Notes under the pieces: generated by a model
What the model was told of the DNA's origin: nothing
Seen by the model: only the letters and a program-made list of their open reading frames with translations
The model's database searches: none
Assembly: GCF_013167455.1 (NCBI RefSeq)
Contig: NZ_CP038328.1
Length of the DNA stretch: 64,000 nucleotides
Source: Escherichia coli O157:H7
Lineage (GTDB): Bacteria; Pseudomonadota; Gammaproteobacteria; Enterobacterales; Enterobacteriaceae
Strand: one strand, 5' to 3'
Position numbers and translations under genes: made by a program
In this document: positions 21,840-63,585 of the stretch, piece after piece
How positions within the stretch are numbered: position 1 is the stretch's first letter
Layout of the letters: each line of letters begins with the position of its first letter

Positions 21840-23380
21840 TGTCGCGCAATCTTCGTCATTGGGTGATTTTGCTGTTTATTGTGCTAGCCTGGGGAACCGG
21901 CTGGCTGATGCTGTGGACGCTCAGCTTTTATCTGACCAATAACGGTCAACAGGCGGTGTTGTTTCTCCCGCAGGGAGTTTATCTCGCCCTTGTTATTTTG
22001 CTCTCTCGCCGCTACTGGCCTGCGTTGGTGCTCCCCCCTTTGCTGATGATGTTCTGGCTCCATAGTGAACAGCTATTGAACGGTTATCTCATGCTGGCAA
22101 CGCCGGTTATTAGCCTGTTTCCTGCCCTCCTTGCGCAAAACTTCTGGCACCGTTTTCCACTTTACTGGCAGCGTCTGACGTTGCTGTTAGCCACTGTCAC
22201 GGCAGCTTCATTGTTGAATACCGCCCTGCTCTCCCCTTTTATGTCAGGCCCAATAATGCTACCGGGTTTGACCTCATTTACCGGCGGCGTATTACTGACG
22301 CCGTTTGTCTATCTTATCTTTGAGTTTCTGCGCCAGCAGCATCGCTACCAGCTCCTGGGACTCGATACGCATAATCCCCCCTTGCGTACCTCTTTAATCA
22401 TCTGGTGTAGCCTGTTTTTTATTATTGGTATCGGCACTCAGATGGTGCTGTCACCTGAAATTGAACGTCTGCTGTTGATCGTGGTCTTTTTGCCCAATGT
22501 GGTGATGGCGTGGAAATTTGGCTGGCAAGGTGGCGTACTCTCCGGGCTTTTGGGCAGCATGATGATCACCATCGCCCGCCAGATTGGCGTGGGCTTTAGT
22601 AACCTGGTGGAGCTGGAGATTTTCCTCGCGACCCAGGCCTTGCTGGGAATTGGCCTGGGCATTGCCATCAGTCGCCAGCAACATCTGGCGCTAAACCTGC
22701 ACCATTACCGACAACGGCTGGAGGCCGAGCTGGCAGCGCGGCGGGCATTGGCGGAAAAGCTGATCCACACCGAGGAGGACACGCGAAAAAACCTGGCGCG
22801 AGAGCTGCACGACGAAATCGGTCAGAACATCACCGCCATTCAGATCCAGTCGCAACTGGTGAAGCGGGCGCGTGATCCGGCGCAAATTCAATCCGCAGCC
22901 AGCCAAATCAATGAGCTCGCCCGCCGCATTCATCTCTCCACCCGCCAATTGCTGCGCCAGTTGCGGCCTCCCGCGCTTGATGAACTGACATTTCGCGAAG
23001 CGTTGCTGCATCTGATTAATGAATTTGCCTTTAGTGAACGCGGCATTCATTGCCAGTTTGCCTATCAACTGAACTCCACACCAGAAAACGAAACGGTGCG
23101 CTTTACCTTGTATCGGTTATTGCAGGAGTTGCTCAATAACATCTGTAAACACGCCGAAGCCAGCGAAGTGACGATTATCCTGCGCCAGCAGGGAGAGGTA
23201 TTGCATCTGGAAGTCAGCGACAACGGTGTGGGGATCGCCAGCGGGAAAATGGCTGGATTTGGCATTCAGGGGATGCGTGAGCGCGTCAGCGCCCTGGGCG
23301 GCGACTTAACGCTCGAAAAACAGCACGGCACGCGGGTAATTGTTAACTTGCCCACATTTTTGCAACAAATCGCCGGATAA
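21839..23380 (+). CDS. UhpB-like sensor histidine kinase (membrane N-terminal domain plus HisKA_3/HATPase), 513 aa
   Basis: Hydrophobic N-terminal half, H-box LARELHDEIGQ, C-terminal ATPase; resembles UhpB. Start overlaps the regulator stop. Confidence 0.85.
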   Translation: MSRNLRHWVILLFIVLAWGTGWLMLWTLSFYLTNNGQQAVLFLPQGVYLALVILLSRRYWPALVLPPLLMMFWLHSEQLLNGYLMLATPVISLFPALLAQNFWHRFPLYWQRLTLLLATVTAASLLNTALLSPFMSGPIMLPGLTSFTGGVLLTPFVYLIFEFLRQQHRYQLLGLDTHNPPLRTSLIIWCSLFFIIGIGTQMVLSPEIERLLLIVVFLPNVVMAWKFGWQGGVLSGLLGSMMITIARQIGVGFSNLVELEIFLATQALLGIGLGIAISRQQHLALNLHHYRQRLEAELAARRALAEKLIHTEEDTRKNLARELHDEIGQNITAIQIQSQLVKRARDPAQIQSAASQINELARRIHLSTRQLLRQLRPPALDELTFREALLHLINEFAFSERGIHCQFAYQLNSTPENETVRFTLYRLLQELLNNICKHAEASEVTIILRQQGEVLHLEVSDNGVGIASGKMAGFGIQGMRERVSALGGDLTLEKQHGTRVIVNLPTFLQQIAG

Positions 23381-33555: not shown

Positions 33556-33625
33556 AATGACTGCCTACGGGCGAAATGTAGACCGGATAAGGCGTTCACG
33601 CCGCATCCGGCAGTCGTGCTGGGAT
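33556..33625. repeat. REP-type element between mhpE and mhpT; reverse complement of the element at about 31517-31565
   Basis: CGGGCGAAATGTAGACCGGATAAGGCGTTCACGCCGCATCCGGCAGTC read directly. Confidence 0.75.
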
Positions 33626-33659
33626 GGGCATACAAAATGCACGTTCTCGGCAGTCAATA

Positions 33660-48504: not shown

Positions 48505-49116
48505 ATGAACATGTCGATGACAGAAAGAATAAAAGCAGGCAAGCTATTTACCGATATGTGCGAAGGCTTACCTGAAAAAAGACTTCGTAGAAAAACGTTA
48601 ATGTATGAGTTTAATCACTCGCATCCATCAGAAGTTGATAAAAGAGAAAGCCTGATTAAAGAAATGTTTGCCACGGTAGGGGAAAACGCCTGGGTAGAAC
48701 CCCCCGTCTATTTCTCTTACGGTTCCAACATCCATATAGGCCGCAATTTTTATGCAAATTTCAATTTAACCATTGTCGATGACTACACGGTAACAATCGG
48801 TGATAACGTATTGATTGCACCCAACGTTACTCTTTCCGTTACGGGACACCCTGTACACCATGAATTGAGAAAAAACGGTGAGATGTACTCTTTTCCGATA
48901 ACGATTGGCAATAACGTCTGGATCGGAAGTCATGTGGTTATTAATCCAGGCGTCACCATTGGGGATAATTCTGTTATTGGCGCGGGTAGTATCGTCACAA
49001 AAGACATTCCACCAAACGTCGTGGCGGCTGGCGTTCCTTGTCGGGTTATTCGCGAAATAAACGACCGGGATAAGCAATATTATTTCAGAGATTACAAAGT
49101 TGAATCGTCAGTTTAA
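48505..49116 (+). CDS. lacA: Galactoside O-acetyltransferase (203 aa; start at MNMSMTER)
   Basis: Hexapeptide-repeat acetyltransferase; listed ORF extends upstream through the REP element. Confidence 0.9.
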   Translation: MNMSMTERIKAGKLFTDMCEGLPEKRLRRKTLMYEFNHSHPSEVDKRESLIKEMFATVGENAWVEPPVYFSYGSNIHIGRNFYANFNLTIVDDYTVTIGDNVLIAPNVTLSVTGHPVHHELRKNGEMYSFPITIGNNVWIGSHVVINPGVTIGDNSVIGAGSIVTKDIPPNVVAAGVPCRVIREINDRDKQYYFRDYKVESSV

Positions 49117-55384: not shown

Positions 55385-56128
55385 AACAGTGGGTAGGCAT
55401 GATAAGACGCGTCAGCGTCGCATCAGGCAACTACGCACGGTGTCGGATGCGGCGCGAGCGCCTTATCCGACCTACGGTTCAGGCCTGTAGGCATGATAAG
55501 ACGCGCCTGCGTCGTATCAGGCATCTGCGCACGGTGTCGGATGCGGCGCGAGCGCCTTATCCGACCTACGGTTCAGGCCTGTAGGCATGATAAGACGCAT
55601 CAGCGTCGCATCAGGCACTGAGCACGGTGTCGGATGCGGTGCGAGCGCCTTATCCGACCTACGGTTCAGGCCTGTAGGCATGATAAGACGCATCAGCGTC
55701 GCATCAGGCATCTGCGCATGGTGTCGGATGCGGCGCGAGCGCCTTATCCGACCTACGGTTCAGGCCTGTAGGCATGATAAGACGCGCCTGCGTCGCATCA
55801 GGCATCGGCGCATGGTGTCGAATGCGGCGCGAGCGCCTTATCCGACCTACGGTTCAGGCCTGTAGGCATGATAAGACGCATCAGCGTCGCATCAGGCATC
55901 GGCGCATGGTGTCGAATGCGGTGCGAGCGCCTTATCCGACCTACGGTTCAGGCCTGTAGGCATGATAAGACGCATCAGCGTCGCATCAGGCATCTGCGCA
56001 TGGTGTCGGATGCGGCGCGAGCGCCTTATCCGACCTACGGTTCAGGCCTGTAGGCATGATAAGACGCGCCAGCGTCGCATCAGGCATCTGCGCACAACTG
56101 TCGGATGCGCCACGCGACGCATCCGACA
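55385..56128. repeat. Tandem array (about 8 copies) of a roughly 94-bp composite REP/BIME-type unit between the codB promoter and the prpE 3' end
   Basis: The motif TAGGCATGATAAGACGC recurs at about 55394, 55488, 55582, 55675, 55769, 55863, 55957 and 56051, each followed by GTCGGATGCGGCGCGAGCGCCTTATCCGACCTACGGTTCAGGCCTG. Confidence 0.9.
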
Positions 56129-56133
56129 ATACC

Positions 56134-58020
56134 TTACTCTTCCATCGCCTGGCGGATCTGATTCAACGACGCAGGATCATCAATGGTCGTCAGATCCCCA
56201 GGATCGCGTCCTTCGCAAATCGCCTGGATCGTGCGGCGCAGCATTTTTCCGGATCGCGTTTTTGGCAATTGCGAGACAAACCAGACGTGCGCCGGGCGGC
56301 CAAAGTTGCCAATCTGGCTGTCCACCAGCGCCATAATCGCCTTCTCTTGCGAATGCGCCACATCACGATCTTCCAGACTGTCGCTCTCTTTCGGAATGAC
56401 AAACGCCACCGCCACCTGCCCTTTCAGCGCATCTTTCACCCCAACCACCGCCACTTCGGCAACGCCCGGATGACTGGAGATACTCTCTTCAATCTCGCGC
56501 GTCCCCAGCCGATGCCCGGCAACGTTAATCACATCGTCAGTGCGCCCGAGAATAAAGTGATAACCGTCAGCGTCACGGATGCCCCAGTCAAAGGTGGCGT
56601 ACACCGGGCGGGAAAACAGCGACCAGTACGTCTTCACAAAGCGGTCGTCGTCGCCCCAGATGGTCTGAATACACCCCGGCGGCAGCGGCCCTTCCACCAC
56701 CAGCATCCCTTTCTCGTTGACGCCACACGGTTCGCCGGTGACTTCATTAAGCAACTGCACGTTATAGCCATACATCGGCACGCCGGGGCTTCCCAGACGC
56801 GTCGGCCTGTCGTCCAGACCGCGAGCAATCGCCATAATCGGCCAGCCGGATTCGGTCTGCCAGTAGTTGTCGATGACCGGCACATCCAGCGTATTGCTCA
56901 CCCAACTGGCGGTCGGCTCGTCCAGCGGTTCTCCAGCCAGATAGAGCACTTCCAGCGACGAGAGATCGTGTTTGCGAATTTCAGCGGTAGGGAATTTTTT
57001 CAGCACGCGAATGGCGGTCGGCGCTGAGAACATCCGGCTAACCTGATATTTCTCGACGATTTTCCACCACACGCCGCAGTCCGGCCAGGTCGGTAATCCT
57101 TCGTAAACGATAGTCGCCATCCCCGCCAGCAGCGGCGCGTAGACGATATACGAATGCCCCACCACCCAGCCGATATCCGAAGCACAAAAGAACACACCGC
57201 CCGCTTTGCCGCCAAAAATGGTGTCCATCGAGGTCGCCAGCGCCACCGCATATCCGCCAACGTCACGCTGCACGCCTTTAGGTTTGCCGGTCGTGCCGGA
57301 GGTGTAGAGAATGCAGGAGGTTTCGTTGGATTCCAGCCACGCCACCGGTACCCGCGCGCCGATGTGTTGATGGCGCAACGACGCGAAATCGACATCCCGC
57401 CCGCTGACGCGTGCCATTTTCGCCAGCCCGCGATCCACCAGCAAAACATGGCGTGGCTGGTGCTGCGCCTGACTTATCGCATCGTCGAGCAATTTTTTAT
57501 AGGGAATGATTTTGCCACCGCGCGCTCCGGCATCAGCCGAGACAATCAGCACCGGTTTAGCATCATCAATTCGCGCCGCCACGCTGTGCGAGGCAAATCC
57601 CCCAAACACCACCGAGTGAATAGCGCCAATGCGCGCGCAGGCCAGCAGAGTAATATGCGCTTCGGCAATCATCGGCATATACACCAGCACCCGATCGCCA
57701 CGCTGCACGCCCAGCGAGCGCAGCATTGACGCCACCGCGTTTACTTCGTCATGAAGCTGGCGAAAGGTAAAGGTGCGCTCTTCTTCTGTTTCCGAAGAGA
57801 CGGCAATCAGCGCCAGCGCCTCTGGTTGTTTCTCCAGCCAGCGGTCGATAGCGTTGTGGCACAAGTTGGTTCGGCCTTCACAAAACCAACGGGCAAACGG
57901 CGGATTGCTGTGATCGAGCGTTTGCGTAAAGGGCGTCTGCCAGTCAATACGCCGGGCCTGCTCGGCCCAGAACTGCTCCGGTTCGTTAATCGAACGCTGA
58001 TAAAATTCGCTAAAAGACAT
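56134..58020 (-). CDS. prpE: Propionyl-CoA synthetase
   Basis: 628 aa acyl-CoA synthetase with YTSGTTGKPKG motif. Confidence 0.95.
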   Translation of the reverse strand: MSFSEFYQRSINEPEQFWAEQARRIDWQTPFTQTLDHSNPPFARWFCEGRTNLCHNAIDRWLEKQPEALALIAVSSETEEERTFTFRQLHDEVNAVASMLRSLGVQRGDRVLVYMPMIAEAHITLLACARIGAIHSVVFGGFASHSVAARIDDAKPVLIVSADAGARGGKIIPYKKLLDDAISQAQHQPRHVLLVDRGLAKMARVSGRDVDFASLRHQHIGARVPVAWLESNETSCILYTSGTTGKPKGVQRDVGGYAVALATSMDTIFGGKAGGVFFCASDIGWVVGHSYIVYAPLLAGMATIVYEGLPTWPDCGVWWKIVEKYQVSRMFSAPTAIRVLKKFPTAEIRKHDLSSLEVLYLAGEPLDEPTASWVSNTLDVPVIDNYWQTESGWPIMAIARGLDDRPTRLGSPGVPMYGYNVQLLNEVTGEPCGVNEKGMLVVEGPLPPGCIQTIWGDDDRFVKTYWSLFSRPVYATFDWGIRDADGYHFILGRTDDVINVAGHRLGTREIEESISSHPGVAEVAVVGVKDALKGQVAVAFVIPKESDSLEDRDVAHSQEKAIMALVDSQIGNFGRPAHVWFVSQLPKTRSGKMLRRTIQAICEGRDPGDLTTIDDPASLNQIRQAMEE

Positions 58021-58059
58021 AATGCTCTCCTGTTGAACTTACGCCTTACCGCCGTTTAC

Positions 58060-59511
58060 TTAAATGACGTACAGGTCGAGATACTCATTGACCGGCATCT
58101 GTTCCAGGCGAGCTCTGTCGAGAGAAACCTCCAGAATGCGCTGCTGTTGGCGAGTCGGGAACTGGCGCGCGAGATTGATTTTGAATTTATCGACCAGTTT
58201 CGGAATACCATCCTGACGGCGGCGAGCATGACCAATGGGGTACTCCACCACCACTTCTTCAAATCGTGTGCCGTCGGTGAACTCAAGGGTAATGGCATTG
58301 GCGATGGCGCGTTTTTCCGGGTCGTGGTAGTCAGCGGTAAATACCGGATCTTCAAAGCAATTGATCTTCTCGCGCAGGGCGTCAATGCGTTTATCTTGCG
58401 CAACGTTGTCCTCGTAATCTGCCGCCGTTAAGCGCCCGAATAGCAGTGGGATCGCCACCATGTACTGAATGCAGTGGTCGCGGTCTGCCGGGTTATTGAG
58501 CGGCCCCTTTTTGTCGATGATGCGAATACAGGCTTCGTGGGTGCGGATGGACACTTTTTCGATATCTGCCGCCGTTTTGCCTGCTGCCTGCATCTGTTCA
58601 TAGAGCGTCATCGCTGCTTCAACTGCCGTCTGGGAGTGGAACTCCGCCGGGAAGGAGATTTTGAACAGCACATTTTCCATCACGTAAGAACCGTACGGAC
58701 GCTGGAAGCGGAACGATTCACCTTTAAAGGAGACGTCGTAGAAGCCCCACACAGGCGCAGTCAGGGCTGACGGGTAACCCATTTCGCCCGTTTTCGCCAT
58801 CAGTGCCAGACGTACCGCGCGGGAAGTGGCATCGCCCGCCGCCCAGGATTTACGCGTGCCGGTGTTCGGCGCATGGCGATAGGTGCGCAGCGACTGACCG
58901 TCCACCCACGCCAGCGAAACAGCGTTGAGAATTTCCTCGCGGGTCAGGCCAAGCATTTCGGCGACCACGGCGGTGGAAGCCACTTTCACTAACAGAACGT
59001 GGTCGAGGCCGACGCGGTTAAAGGAGTTTTCCAGCGCGATGCAGCCCTGAATTTCATGGGCTTTAATCATTCCGGTCAGCACCTGTTTCATGGTCAACGG
59101 CGCTTTGCCGCTGGCGACCGCGTTGCGTGAAAGCCAGTCCGCCGTTGCCAGAATGCCGCCGAGATTGTCGGAAGGATGGCCCCACTCTGCCGCAAGCCAG
59201 GTATCGTTGAAATCGAGCCAGCGGATCATCGCGCCGATGTTAAATGCCGCCTGGACGGGGTCGAGCTGGAACTGAGTTCCGGGGACGCGCACGCCGTTAG
59301 GTACGACGGTGCCGGGGACAATTGGCCCCAGCAGTTTTTTACAGGCTGGGTATTCGAGAGCTTCAAGACCGCAGCCGAGCGTGTCGAGCAGACAGTAATG
59401 TGCGGTGTCGTAGGCTACTTTGGAGCTGATTTCGTAGTTCATGACGTAATCGACGATATCAACGATTTCACGATCAAATTCCGGGCGGATGTTGTTGATT
59501 TGAGCTGACAT
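58060..59511 (-). CDS. prpD: 2-methylcitrate dehydratase
   Basis: 483 aa, recognised PrpD sequence. Confidence 0.95.
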
Positions 59512-59544
59512 TGGGTACGTTTCCTTATTGTTATTCGTAGAGGT

Positions 59545-60714
59545 TTACTGGCGCTTATCCAGCGCGACAAACTGGCGGTCTTCCGGTCCAACATAATTGG
59601 CGGAAGGACGGATAATTTTGTTGTCCTGACGTTGTTCGATAATGTGCGCCGCCCAGCCGGTGACGCGGGCGATAACAAACAGTGGTGTGAACATCTCGGT
59701 GGGAACGCCCATCATGTTGTAGGAAACAGCGGAGAACCAGTCGAGATTGGGGAACATCTTTTTGCTCTCCCACATCACCGTTTCCAGGCGATCGGCGATG
59801 TTGTACATCTTCAGCGAGCCGCCTTCCTGCGAGAGCTGCTTCGCCACACGTTTAATCACCTGGTGGCGCGGGTCGGCGATGGTATAAACCGGATGACCAA
59901 AACCAATGACCACTTCTTTGCTTTCCACCCGCTTGCGGATATCGGCTTCGGCTTCGTCCGGCGTTTCGTAGCGTTGCTGGATCTCCAGCGACACTTCATT
60001 CGCCCCGCCGTGCTTCGGCCCGCGCAGTGCACCAATCGCGCCAATAATCGCGGAATACATATCAGAGCCAGTGCCCGCAATCACCCGGCTGGTAAAGGTG
60101 GAGGCGTTAAACTCGTGTTCGGCGTACAGCACCAGCGAAATATGCATCGCCTTTTCCCAGCTTTGCGACGGCTTTTCGCCGTGCAGCAGATGCAGGAAGT
60201 GACCACCGATGGAGTCGTCATCGGTTTCCGGCTGGATGCGTTCGCCGTTGTGGCTGTAGTGATACCAGTAGAGAAGAATCGAGCTAAGTGACGCCAGCAG
60301 TTTGTCGGCAATATCCCGCGCGCCAGAGACGGTATGCCCCTCTTTTTCTGGCAGCGTGCAGCCGAGCGCGGAAACGCCGGTGCGCATAACATCCATCGGG
60401 TGTGACGCCGCCGGTAAGGCTTCCAGCACGGTACGCACGTTAGCCGGTAAACCGCGCAGGGCTTTCAATTTCGTTTTGTAGGCGGCGAGTTCGTCACGGG
60501 TCGGCAGTTTGCCGTGGATCAGCAGATGCGCCACTTCTTCAAATTCGCAATGTTCCGCCAGATCAAGAATATCGTAGCCACGGTAATGCAAGTCATTGCC
60601 ACTTTTACCCACGGTGCAGAGCGCCGTATTGCCCGCCGGAACGCCAGAAAGCGCCACAGATTTTTTCGGTTTAATGACATGGGTACTGTTTTGCAGGATC
60701 GTTGTGTCGCTCAT
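59545..60714 (-). CDS. prpC: 2-methylcitrate synthase (389 aa; start at [10 protein letters not shown])
   Basis: Citrate-synthase family; listed ORF extends 28 codons upstream into REP sequence. Confidence 0.95.
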
Positions 60715-60755
60715 ATTGTCCTCGTCATTGTTATCATTTGTAGGGTCGAGATTGT

Positions 60756-60850
60756 TGTCGGATGCGACGCCATGCGTCTTATCCGACCTACAGTTCACCC
60801 CGTAGGCCTGATAAGTCGCGTCAGCGGCGCATCAGGCATCGGTTGTCGAA
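60756..60850. repeat. REP elements in the prpB-prpC intergenic region
   Basis: GTCGGATGCGACGCCATGCGTCTTATCCGACCTAC and GTAGGCCTGATAAGTCGCGTCAGCGGCGCATCAGGC read directly. Confidence 0.8.
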
Positions 60851-60869
60851 TACAACCAACGGGCGTTTT

Positions 60870-61760
60870 TTATTTCGCCTGGCTACGGACAAACAGGTCG
60901 TCGAGCTTCTCTTCGTAGTGGTAGTAGTTGATGCTTTCGTACAGCTCGTTGCGGGTCTGCATGGTGTCGATGACGCTTTTCTGCGTGCCTTCCTGGCGCA
61001 GGACGTTGTAGACATGTTCGGCGGCGCGGTTCATGGCGCGAAACGCTGAAAGCGGGTACAGCGCCATCGCGACATGAGCGCTGCGTAATTCGTCGGTGGT
61101 AAACAGCGGCGTGGCGCCAAATTCGGTAATGTTGGCGAGGATTGGCACCTGCACCGCATCGGCAAACTGGCGGTACATGGCGAGTTCGGTAATCGCCTCC
61201 GGGAACAACATCTCGGCACCCGCTTCAACATAGGCCTGCGCACGCTCGATCGCCGCATCCAGCCCCTCTACCGCCAGCGCATCGGTGCGCGCCATGATCA
61301 CAAAATCAGGATCGGTTTTCGCATCCACCGCCGCGCGGATCCGATCCACCATCTCCTCTTTCGAGACGATCGCTTTGTTCGGGCGATGACCACAGCGTTT
61401 TGCACCAACCTGATCTTCAATATGCAATCCCGCCGCACCGGCTTTAATCATCGATTTCACCGTACGCGCAACGTTAAAAGCAGAAGAACCAAAACCGATA
61501 TCCGCATCCACCAGCAGCGGCAGCGAACAAACGTCGGTGATACGGCGAATATCTGTCAACACGTCATCAAGAGTAGAAATACCGAGATCGGGCAGCCCCA
61601 GCGACCCTGCCGCCACGCCACCGCCGGAGAGATAAATTGCCTGATATCCGGCACGCTGCGCCAACAGCGCATGGTTGGCGTTAATGGTGCCAACAATCTG
61701 CAATGGATTTTCTTTAGTCAGTGCAGCGCGAAACGCTTTACCTGGAGAGTGTAGAGACAT
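60870..61760 (-). CDS. prpB: 2-methylisocitrate lyase
   Basis: 296 aa, isocitrate-lyase/PEP-mutase family. Confidence 0.95.
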
Positions 61761-61805
61761 AGCCCATCCTTTGTTATCAACTTGTTATTTTCGTTGATAA
61801 CGACA

Positions 61806-61823
61806 AAGCAAGGGGTGTGCCAC
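61806..61823 (-). promoter_or_regulatory. Sigma-54 promoter for prpBCDE (minus strand TGGCAC-ACCCC-TTGCT)
   Basis: Near-consensus -24/-12 element about 50 nt upstream of the prpB start; the divergent prpR encodes a sigma-54 enhancer-binding protein (GAFTGS motif). Confidence 0.65.
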
Positions 61824-61998
61824 AATTGCCTTAATAAAATTAAATCTTTAATTTCAATTTGTTAGAGATAAAGTCATGAACTAATCCGCAAATATGCGTT
61901 TCAGTTAACGTTTCAGGCAATGTTTCACCGCGTTTCATTGCAACAATTATGAAACAAGACTAAACCCAATATTCGGTATCTTAACTTTGCGGTGCGCT

Positions 61999-63585
61999 AT
62001 GGCACATCCACCACGGCTGAATGACGACAAACCGGTTATCTGGACGGTATCTGTAACGCGCTTATTCGAGCTGTTTCGCGATATCAGCCTCGAGTTTGAT
62101 CACCTGGCGAACATTACCCCTATTCAGCTTGGCTTTGAAAAAGCAGTGACCTACATCCGCAAGAAACTGGCAAACGAACGCTGTGACGCCATCATCGCCG
62201 CTGGCTCTAACGGCGCGTACCTGAAAAGCCGCCTGTCAGTGCCAGTTATTTTGATTAAACCGAGCGGCTACGATGTGTTACAGGCACTGGCAAAAGCCGG
62301 AAAACTCACCTCTTCTATCGGCGTTGTCACTTATCAGGAAACTATTCCGGCACTGGTGGCGTTTCAAAAAACCTTTAATTTGCGCCTCGATCAACGTAGC
62401 TACATTACCGAAGAAGACGCACGCGGGCAGATTAACGAGCTAAAAGCTAACGGCACCGAAGCGGTGGTCGGCGCGGGGCTGATTACCGATCTGGCAGAAG
62501 AAGCCGGAATGACCGGAATTTTTATCTATTCCGCCGCCACCGTGCGCCAGGCGTTCAGCGATGCGCTGGATATGACGCGCATGTCGTTACGCCATAACAC
62601 TCACGATGCCACCCGCAACGCCCTGCGTACTCGTTACGTGCTGGGCGATATGCTCGGTCAATCACCACAGATGGAGCAGGTGCGGCAGACTATTTTGCTG
62701 TATGCCCGCTCCAGTGCGGCGGTGTTGATTGAGGGGGAAACGGGGACGGGCAAAGAGCTGGCGGCCCAGGCAATTCATCGGGAATATTTTGCCCGCCACG
62801 ATGCGCGACAGGGCAAAAAGTCGCATCCGTTTGTTGCCGTCAACTGCGGGGCGATTGCCGAATCGCTGCTGGAAGCGGAGCTGTTTGGCTATGAGGAAGG
62901 GGCGTTTACCGGCTCGCGACGCGGAGGTCGCGCCGGGCTGTTCGAAATTGCCCACGGTGGCACGCTGTTTCTGGATGAGATTGGCGAAATGCCGCTACCT
63001 TTGCAGACTCGCCTGTTACGGGTGCTGGAAGAAAAAGAGGTCACCCGCGTCGGCGGGCATCAGCCTGTTCCGGTAGATGTACGGGTCATTAGCGCCACTC
63101 ACTGCAATCTGGAAGAAGATATGCGGCAAGGGCAGTTTCGCCGTGATCTGTTTTATCGGCTGAGTATTTTGCGTCTGCAATTGCCACCACTGCGCGAGCG
63201 GGTGGCAGATATTCTTCCGCTGGCGGAAAGCTTTTTGAAAGTGTCTCTGGCGGCGCTCTCCGCCCCATTTTCTGCCGCATTACGCCAGGGATTACAGGCA
63301 AGCGAAACCGTGCTGGTGCACTACGACTGGCCAGGTAATATTCGTGAACTGCGCAATATGATGGAGCGACTGGCGCTATTTTTAAGTGTGGAACCGACGC
63401 CGGATTTAACGCCGCAGTTTTTGCAGCTGCTACTGCCGGAACTGGCGCGCGAGTCGGCGAAAATTCCCGCTCCACGCTTGCTGACACCACAACAGGCACT
63501 GGAGAAATTTAATGGCGATAAAACAGCAGCGGCGAATTATTTAGGCATCAGCCGGACGACGTTCTGGCGGCGGCTGAAAAGCTGA
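61999..63585 (+). CDS. prpR: Sigma-54-dependent activator of the prp operon (528 aa; start at [10 protein letters not shown])
   Basis: AAA+ sigma-54 interaction domain ([14 protein letters not shown]) and C-terminal HTH. Confidence 0.9.

Follow-up and report, generated by a model that had tools for sequence, protein, structure and literature searches.

A conserved, already described sigma-54 promoter of prpBCDE and its candidate PrpR enhancer in Escherichia coli O157:H7

The prpR-PprpB pair is a textbook switch through which propionate, by way of 2-methylcitrate, controls expression of the 2-methylcitrate cycle, and both the propionate-inducible pPro expression system and propionate biosensors already exploit it. 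According to several reviews, prpR, ntrA (rpoN), and ihf are required (Palacios 2000, as cited there), 2-methylcitrate serves as co-activator, and cAMP-CRP acts on both promoters (PMC5566544, PMC10101121, PMC9452892, PMC4987338). The requirement for IHF is known from Salmonella (PMC5566544, PMC10101121), where wild-type expression of prpBCDE exceeded that of an rpoN mutant 45-fold in the presence of a promiscuous activator, and where the prpBCDE promoter is a ChIP-chip site (PMC3844500). The PrpR enhancer of Salmonella is CGTTTCATGAAACG (Palacios and Escalante-Semerena 2004, as tabulated in PMC4987338). Microarrays of E. coli K-12 found prpB to be 2.8-fold down in an rpoN deletion and 2.2-fold up on overexpression of sigma-54, and the same study placed the promoter, attgTGGCACACCCCTTGCTTTgtct, at positions -62 to -45 (PMC2831329). 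In genomic SELEX, reconstituted RpoN holoenzyme picks out the prpR/prpB spacer (PMC8743547), and the 17-mer GTGGCACACCCCTTGCT, identical in the DNA studied here, is the K-12 sigma-54 ChIP-seq site OS01 (FAT 17), with a predicted start 36 nt before prpB (PMC4591121). In 2015, EcoCyc flagged the E. coli prpB promoter as "predicted" (flag P, Table 1 of PMC4591121), i.e., not experimentally confirmed. Our search of the literature found no experiment on the O157:H7 sequence itself.

We examined this locus in a stretch of 64,000 nucleotides from E. coli O157:H7, referred to below as the window. A first-pass annotation, made from the letters of the window, had read a near-consensus sigma-54 promoter on the minus strand about 50 nt before prpB, as part of a prpBCDE operon facing a divergent prpR whose product carries the GAFTGS sigma-54 contact motif, and had called this an expected, textbook arrangement. 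All of these elements hold, and the feature is indeed one already described. The promoter was confirmed by its sequence, a position weight matrix (PWM), its conservation, and published binding in K-12, and the expected dependence of prpB transcription on RpoN is borne out by the K-12 and Salmonella rpoN data cited above, which contradict RpoN-independence. With a probability of roughly 95%, we conclude that the 238-bp spacer contains the sigma-54 (RpoN) promoter of prpBCDE plus its enhancer. This promoter is real, conserved, and already known, and in that sense ordinary.

Genes around the spacer and position of the promoter core

Positions 61761 to 61998 correspond precisely to the divergent spacer, from the prpB ATG (61760..61758) to the prpR ATG (61999..62001), and the features discussed here are collected in Table 1. 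The genes downstream of the promoter are prpBCDE, as the first-pass annotation had it: all score far above the cut-offs of NCBIfam equivalogs and bear the same names in RefSeq, which annotates prpR, prpB, prpC, prpD, and prpE, flanked by yahO and codBA, on an identical O157:H7 stretch. The equivalogs follow the order of the 2-methylcitrate cycle operon, namely methylisocitrate lyase, 2-methylcitrate synthase, 2-methylcitrate dehydratase, and propionate-CoA ligase. Many E. coli O157:H7 chromosomes match a 1-kb stretch around the spacer with 100% identity, and 5,215 of 5,426 complete E. coli genomes contain the region. A query covering 61400-62400 was without a match in 203 of these 5,426 genomes, and nine matches to the prpR-prpB region in E. 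coli were plasmid-borne rather than chromosomal.

Table 1. Features of the prpR-prpB locus, in positions of the window
Feature	Position	Strand	Basis or content
prpR, sigma-54 enhancer-binding protein, 528 aa	61999..63585	+	NCBIfam NF011953, 1010.7 bits vs cut-off 703
Upstream activating sequence, candidate PrpR enhancer	61898..61955	.	hexamer cluster at -159 to -102
AT-rich spacer between enhancer and promoter	61823..61897	.	75 nt, 74.7% AT vs 47.2% in the window
Sigma-54 core promoter of prpBCDE	61807..61822	-	sequence, PWM, conservation, K-12 ChIP-seq identity
Predicted +1	61796	-	counted from GC at -12; 36-nt leader to prpB ATG
prpB leader	61761..61796	-	Shine-Dalgarno AGGA at 61770..61767; conserved block TAACAAGTTGATAACAA
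prpB, methylisocitrate lyase, first operon gene	60870..61760	-	NF008455, 559.6 bits vs 353; RefSeq
Rest of operon, prpC-prpD-prpE	56134..60714	-	
prpC	59545-60714	-	NF009006, 720.4 bits vs 550; RefSeq
prpD	58060-59511	-	TIGR02330, 924 bits vs 458; RefSeq
prpE	56134-58020	-	TIGR02316, 1304.5 bits vs 827.4; RefSeq
Alignment A1, island 1			TGTTTCAT-N-TGTTGCAATGAAAC
Alignment A1, island 2			TGAAACGTTA[AG]CTGA
Alignment A1, island 3			-24/-12 element
Alignment A1, island 4			leader block ATCAAC...TAACAAGTTGATAACA; Escherichia, Citrobacter, Kluyvera, Pluralibacter

The PrpR protein also scores above the cut-off of the NCBIfam equivalog TIGR02329 and contains the Pfam domains PrpR_N (PF06506, the N-terminal sensory domain; 8.1e-52, residues 36 to 196), Sigma54_activat (PF00158, the central AAA+ domain that interacts with sigma-54; 1.5e-65), AAA_lid_14, and a C-terminal, Fis-type HTH_8 (PF02954; residues 498 to 527). 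Its AAA+ motifs are a Walker A, GETGTGKE, at residues 246 to 253 and a Walker B, LFLDEIGE, at residues 323 to 330, and the GAFTGS motif was found at residues 301 to 306 (window positions 62899-62916).

Repetitive elements lie elsewhere at this locus. On the minus strand, 55396-56035 holds six tandem copies of about 77 nt that match Rfam RF02564 (naRNA4/CssrE) with 65 to 69 bits against a gathering score of 59.5 bits, and these copies form a REP/BIME-type array that takes up the greater part of the 893 nt separating prpE from codB. The 155-nt gap between prpB and prpC (60715-60869) contains the REP-like palindromic units gcctgatgcgccgctgacgcgacttatcaggcctac and taggtcggataagacgcatggcgtcgcatccgac; the repeat number in this gap varies between strains, and RNase R-dependent post-transcriptional effects have been suggested for it (PMC7360682).

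Direct reading of the sequence and a pattern search both gave TGGCACACCCCTTGCT on the minus strand at 61822..61807. Within its TGGCAC-N5-TTGC, the GG doublet (61821/61820, -25/-24) and the GC doublet (61809/61808, -13/-12) are exactly 10 nt apart, as in a sigma-54 promoter. The distance of "about 50 nt" given by the first-pass annotation is a fair one, since the 3' and 5' ends of the motif lie 46 and 62 nt from the prpB ATG, respectively. Counting from the -12 element, transcription of prpB would start near 61796, and the rule used in PMC4591121 (motif centre + 19) yields the same position, with "Distance 36" to prpB. This start is predicted rather than mapped, and our literature search did not turn up a mapped start for E. 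coli prpB. The promoter is in the sense orientation with respect to prpB and has no competing sigma-70 promoter, as a scan of 61600-62150 returned 0 sites with a sigma-70-like pair of -35 and -10 hexamers; a terminator scan of the same interval likewise found none.

Chance matches and conservation across prpB loci

The pattern TGGCAC-N5-TTGCW has one match on the two strands of the 64-kb window, for about 0.24 expected, and the prpB site is still the sole match when one mismatch is allowed, for 3.96 expected. The chance of a match in one specified 238-nt spacer and in the sense orientation is about 4e-4 (0.24 x 238/128000). A single match somewhere in the window is unremarkable, since 19 of 100 shuffles of the window gave at least one; what shows that the prpB promoter is not a chance match is its conservation at the same place across prpB loci.

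We evaluated this conservation in 80 prpB loci of other species, taken from contigs with one genome per species. The set covers Escherichia, Citrobacter, Kluyvera, Salmonella, Pluralibacter, Pseudocitrobacter, and Shimwellia, as well as Photorhabdus, Xenorhabdus, Providencia, Morganella, and several Oxalobacteraceae. In 70 loci, the strict pattern TGGCA[CT]-N5-T[TC]GC[AT] occurs in the sense orientation in the 300 nt preceding prpB, mostly 56 to 82 nt before the ATG, and it had 0 matches on either strand of the remaining 900,144 nt of the loci. The other ten loci have near variants at the equivalent place (TGGTAC or TGGTAT in six, TTGCC or TTGCG endings in four), so that a -24/-12 element precedes prpB in 80/80 loci, from Enterobacterales to Oxalobacteraceae. 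In 68 of them, the gene directly upstream of prpB is a divergent prpR homologue. The 12 exceptions are one Xenorhabdus kozodoii locus and 11 loci from Janthinobacterium or Massilia (L042, L046, L047, L049-L053, L055, L061, and L081). These 11 loci retain TGAAAC hexamers as well as a strong -24/-12 element (Janthinobacterium, TGGCACGGCATTTGCA; Massilia, TGGCACGCCGCTTGCA); no prpR homologue was found within their fetched 2.5-kb flanks, and the activator gene must therefore lie elsewhere. Alignment of 13 enterobacterial prpB-prpR spacers (alignment A1) revealed four conserved islands amid otherwise diverged DNA (Table 1).

These data bear on the possibility that the -24/-12 match arose by chance and that prpB is driven by an ordinary CRP-activated sigma-70 promoter. 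The shuffles of the window, in which an exact match is not rare, and the reported CRP dependence of PprpB are both compatible with it. Such an explanation would, however, have to account for an element that occurs at the same place in every locus compared without background matches in 900 kb, for the lack of a detectable sigma-70-like hexamer pair, for the binding of the K-12 sequence by sigma-54 both in vivo and in vitro, and for the fall of prpB expression in an rpoN deletion. We give it next to no credence and regard it as refuted for practical purposes.

The promoter prediction with a sigma-54 PWM that the first-pass annotation had put forward as a check was run with a 17-nt matrix built from the 41 other "intergenic sense" sigma-54 ChIP-seq motifs of PMC4591121 (Table 1 of that paper), prpB being excluded. 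The prpB site scored 14.94 bits, second among about 128,000 positions and nearly tied with the top score of 14.95, and it falls within the range of the 41 training sites (8.55 to 21.66 bits, median 15.88). The first-pass annotation recognized a genuine sigma-54 promoter from raw sequence, and the combination of motif, PWM from independent sites, and 80-genome footprint provides a clean positive control for less obvious sigma-54 candidates.

Other high PWM scores (13.9 to 15.0 bits) in the window were obtained at 60028-60044 (-), 22793-22809 (+), 22685-22701 (+), and 48742-48758 (-). One of these high matches, TTGGCGCGATTGGTGCA, lies inside prpC in the sense orientation, and coordinate mapping to the O157 record puts the match at 22793 within the gene for a MASE1 sensor kinase. 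All four are absent from the high-stringency K-12 ChIP-seq tables and may be chance matches. Of the other published high-stringency sigma-54 sites, just one maps into the window, at 33625-33641 (+); on the O157 record, it lies between mhpE and mhpT, antisense to mhpT.

Upstream hexamers, accessory factors, and the prpB leader

Read in the sense of prpB, the candidate enhancer contains four direct copies of TGAAAC (61903..61898, 61915..61910, 61927..61922, and 61937..61932), spaced by 12, 12, and 10 nt, and one inverted copy, GTTTCA, at 61955..61950. These five hexamers in 58 nt compare with 0.61 per kb in the window, where no other place has two or more copies in 60 nt. Across the 80 genomes, TGAAAC/GTTTCA shows a 19-fold enrichment in the 300 nt preceding prpB (13.8 versus 0.73 per kb), and no blocks of alignment A1 are more conserved than those with the hexamers. 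The five hexamers lie where an enhancer is expected, about 100 to 200 bp upstream, and, as candidate PrpR half-sites, are in agreement with the published Salmonella enhancer; the copies that PrpR would occupy are predicted from sequence. The Salmonella palindrome CGTTTCATGAAACG was a further candidate, which we rejected: its best matches in the spacer (61897-61910 and 61909-61922) have three mismatches each, because Escherichia has CATTGCCTGAAACG at this place with extra direct copies on either side. The segment 61898-61915, CTGAAACGTTAACTG, resembles the Cra (FruR) box TGAAAC-GTTTCA. A Cra site was also considered, as TGAAACGTTAAC looks Cra-like and such a site has been reported at prpB, yet an EMSA in EHEC was without binding (PMC5829826), and we did not retain it.

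The promoter might instead be mainly a non-productive binding site of the sigma-54 holoenzyme, as many intragenic sites are, a roadblock or competitor that modulates the divergent prpR without driving prpB. Many sigma-54 sites are bound yet transcriptionally silent (PMC4591121), K-12 RefSeq names PrpR a "dual regulator," and the enhancer may overlap the prpR promoter, since it is within about 100 nt of the prpR ATG. The core element, however, is about 180 nt away from that ATG and in the sense orientation for prpB, with a start predicted 36 nt before this gene and a cognate activator and enhancer adjoining it, and published work found that expression of the operon requires rpoN and prpR. We consider a mainly silent site very improbable, albeit somewhat less so than a chance match, and retain the reading of a productive prpBCDE promoter.

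The AT-rich segment between the enhancer and this promoter is the presumed region of IHF bending. It contains two IHF-like sites with one mismatch, at 61838-61850 and 61852-61864 (-68 to -42), either of which is a putative IHF site; a consensus scan found no exact IHF consensus between enhancer and promoter, and an exact one occurs in the enhancer-promoter spacer of only 7/80 loci. A scan for the CRP consensus TGTGA-N6-TCACA gave no match with two or fewer mismatches. Its sole match, with three mismatches, lies over the prpR start codon (61991-62006) and was rejected, and the published CRP site could not be placed; a CRP SELEX-chip study did not recover prpB/prpR (PMC3105977). An Rfam search of the spacer returned only a sub-threshold hit to "uup" (16.8 versus 36.8 bits, E = 1.4), which was rejected.

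Between the -12 element and the Shine-Dalgarno sequence of prpB, we found a perfect 9-bp inverted repeat, GTTATCAAC-N11-GTTGATAAC (61773-61801), which includes TAACAAGTTGATAACAA. Inside this repeat, on the strand opposite prpB, lies an exact IHF consensus, TATCAACTTGTTA, at 61775-61787 (+10 to +22). The 64-kb window has just five exact matches to this consensus, and the one in the leader is conserved in Escherichia, Citrobacter, and Kluyvera (19/80 loci), though not in Salmonella. We found no known function for the inverted repeat, and the leader RNA does not appear structured, as its predicted fold (-6.1 kcal/mol, z = 0.47) is no better than those of shuffled sequences. Downstream of the promoter, the leader block might serve as a regulatory site that has so far escaped description, either as a DNA-binding site or as an element of the mRNA adjacent to the ribosome-binding site.

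The heptamer ATAACAA occurs directly 5' of the Shine-Dalgarno sequences of prpB (twice), prpC, and prpD (61771-61788, 60728, and 59528 on the minus strand), so that these leaders hold 4 of its 14 minus-strand copies in 64 kb. We considered an operon-wide motif of the Hfq or CsrA type and rejected it: other genera have TAACA in 3/57 prpC leaders and 20/65 prpD leaders, and the motif is an unsupported, weak lead because the prpC and prpD leaders outside Escherichia are merely A-rich. Only the prpB copy is broadly kept, with TAACAA before the Shine-Dalgarno sequence of prpB being widely conserved in Enterobacterales.

We propose the following mechanism. The sequence elements, the gene identities, the domains and motifs of PrpR, and the conservation of promoter and hexamers come from the present analysis; that sigma-54 binds, that expression depends on rpoN, and what 2-methylcitrate, IHF, and CRP do is taken from the literature. 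Sigma-54 polymerase would form on TGGCAC-N5-TTGC (61822..61807) a stable closed complex that does not open by itself, and PrpR made from the divergent gene would bind the TGAAAC/GTTTCA cluster about 100 to 160 bp upstream. PrpE and PrpC would turn propionate into 2-methylcitrate, which the N-terminal domain of PrpR would sense, and the ligand-bound protein would assemble as an AAA+ ATPase. Bending of the AT-rich DNA, helped by IHF, would allow PrpR to reach the polymerase, where its GAFTGS loop would touch sigma-54 and ATP hydrolysis would open the promoter. Transcription would then begin near 61796 and yield a 36-nt leader before prpB, with cAMP-CRP contributing catabolite control.

Comparison with known sigma-54 systems

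The closest described system is prpBp (OS01) of E. coli K-12 MG1655, which has the same 17-nt core GTGGCACACCCCTTGCT, the same distance to prpB, the same hexamer cluster, and a divergent prpR. The spacers are identical at 234 of 238 positions; the four SNPs (61978, 61846, 61801 at -5, and 61791 at +6) are all outside the -24/-12 core and the TGAAAC hexamers, and PrpR differs by a few amino-acid substitutions. The O157:H7 copy therefore retains every core element intact.

Salmonella likewise has a divergent prpR and, equally far from prpB, a -24/-12 promoter (TGGCATAGCCTTTGCT), with 2-methylcitrate again the co-activator; the block GTTTCA-N12-TGAAAC and TGAAACGTTA[AG]CTG are conserved as well (the Salmonella sequence features were taken from S. 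enterica subsp. arizonae and diarizonae). The two differ in three respects. First, the -24 element reads TGGCAT in most relatives but TGGCAC in O157 and K-12. Second, conservation of the leader block ATCAAC...AAGTTGATAACA does not extend to Salmonella. Third, Salmonella and Citrobacter have the exact adjacent palindrome CGTTTCATGAAACG, whereas Escherichia has CATTGCCTGAAACG there and extra direct copies of TGAAAC (alignment A1; comparison with loci L009, L021, and L022). Four direct TGAAAC repeats at a spacing of about one helical turn, replacing CGTTTCATGAAACG, would imply a different geometry of PrpR assembly on DNA. That this swap of the Escherichia enhancer gives such a geometry and, jointly, that the leader block is an undescribed regulatory site is a doubtful proposition, which we put forward tentatively. 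In pPro vectors, the Salmonella PprpB is about 3-fold stronger than that of E. coli (PMC5566544), and we speculate that the enhancer rearrangement might account for the approximately three-fold weaker E. coli promoter. The rearranged enhancer and the leader element leave unchanged the main reading, that of a sigma-54 promoter of prpBCDE with its enhancer.

More distant counterparts are NorR-norVW and FhlA-hyc (named in PMC4987338), which likewise combine a -24/-12 core, an enhancer at least 100 bp upstream, and a GAFTGS-containing AAA+ activator regulated by a ligand-binding N-terminal domain. The prp system differs from both by its PrpR_N sensor (PF06506), its 2-methylcitrate ligand, and its recognition hexamer.
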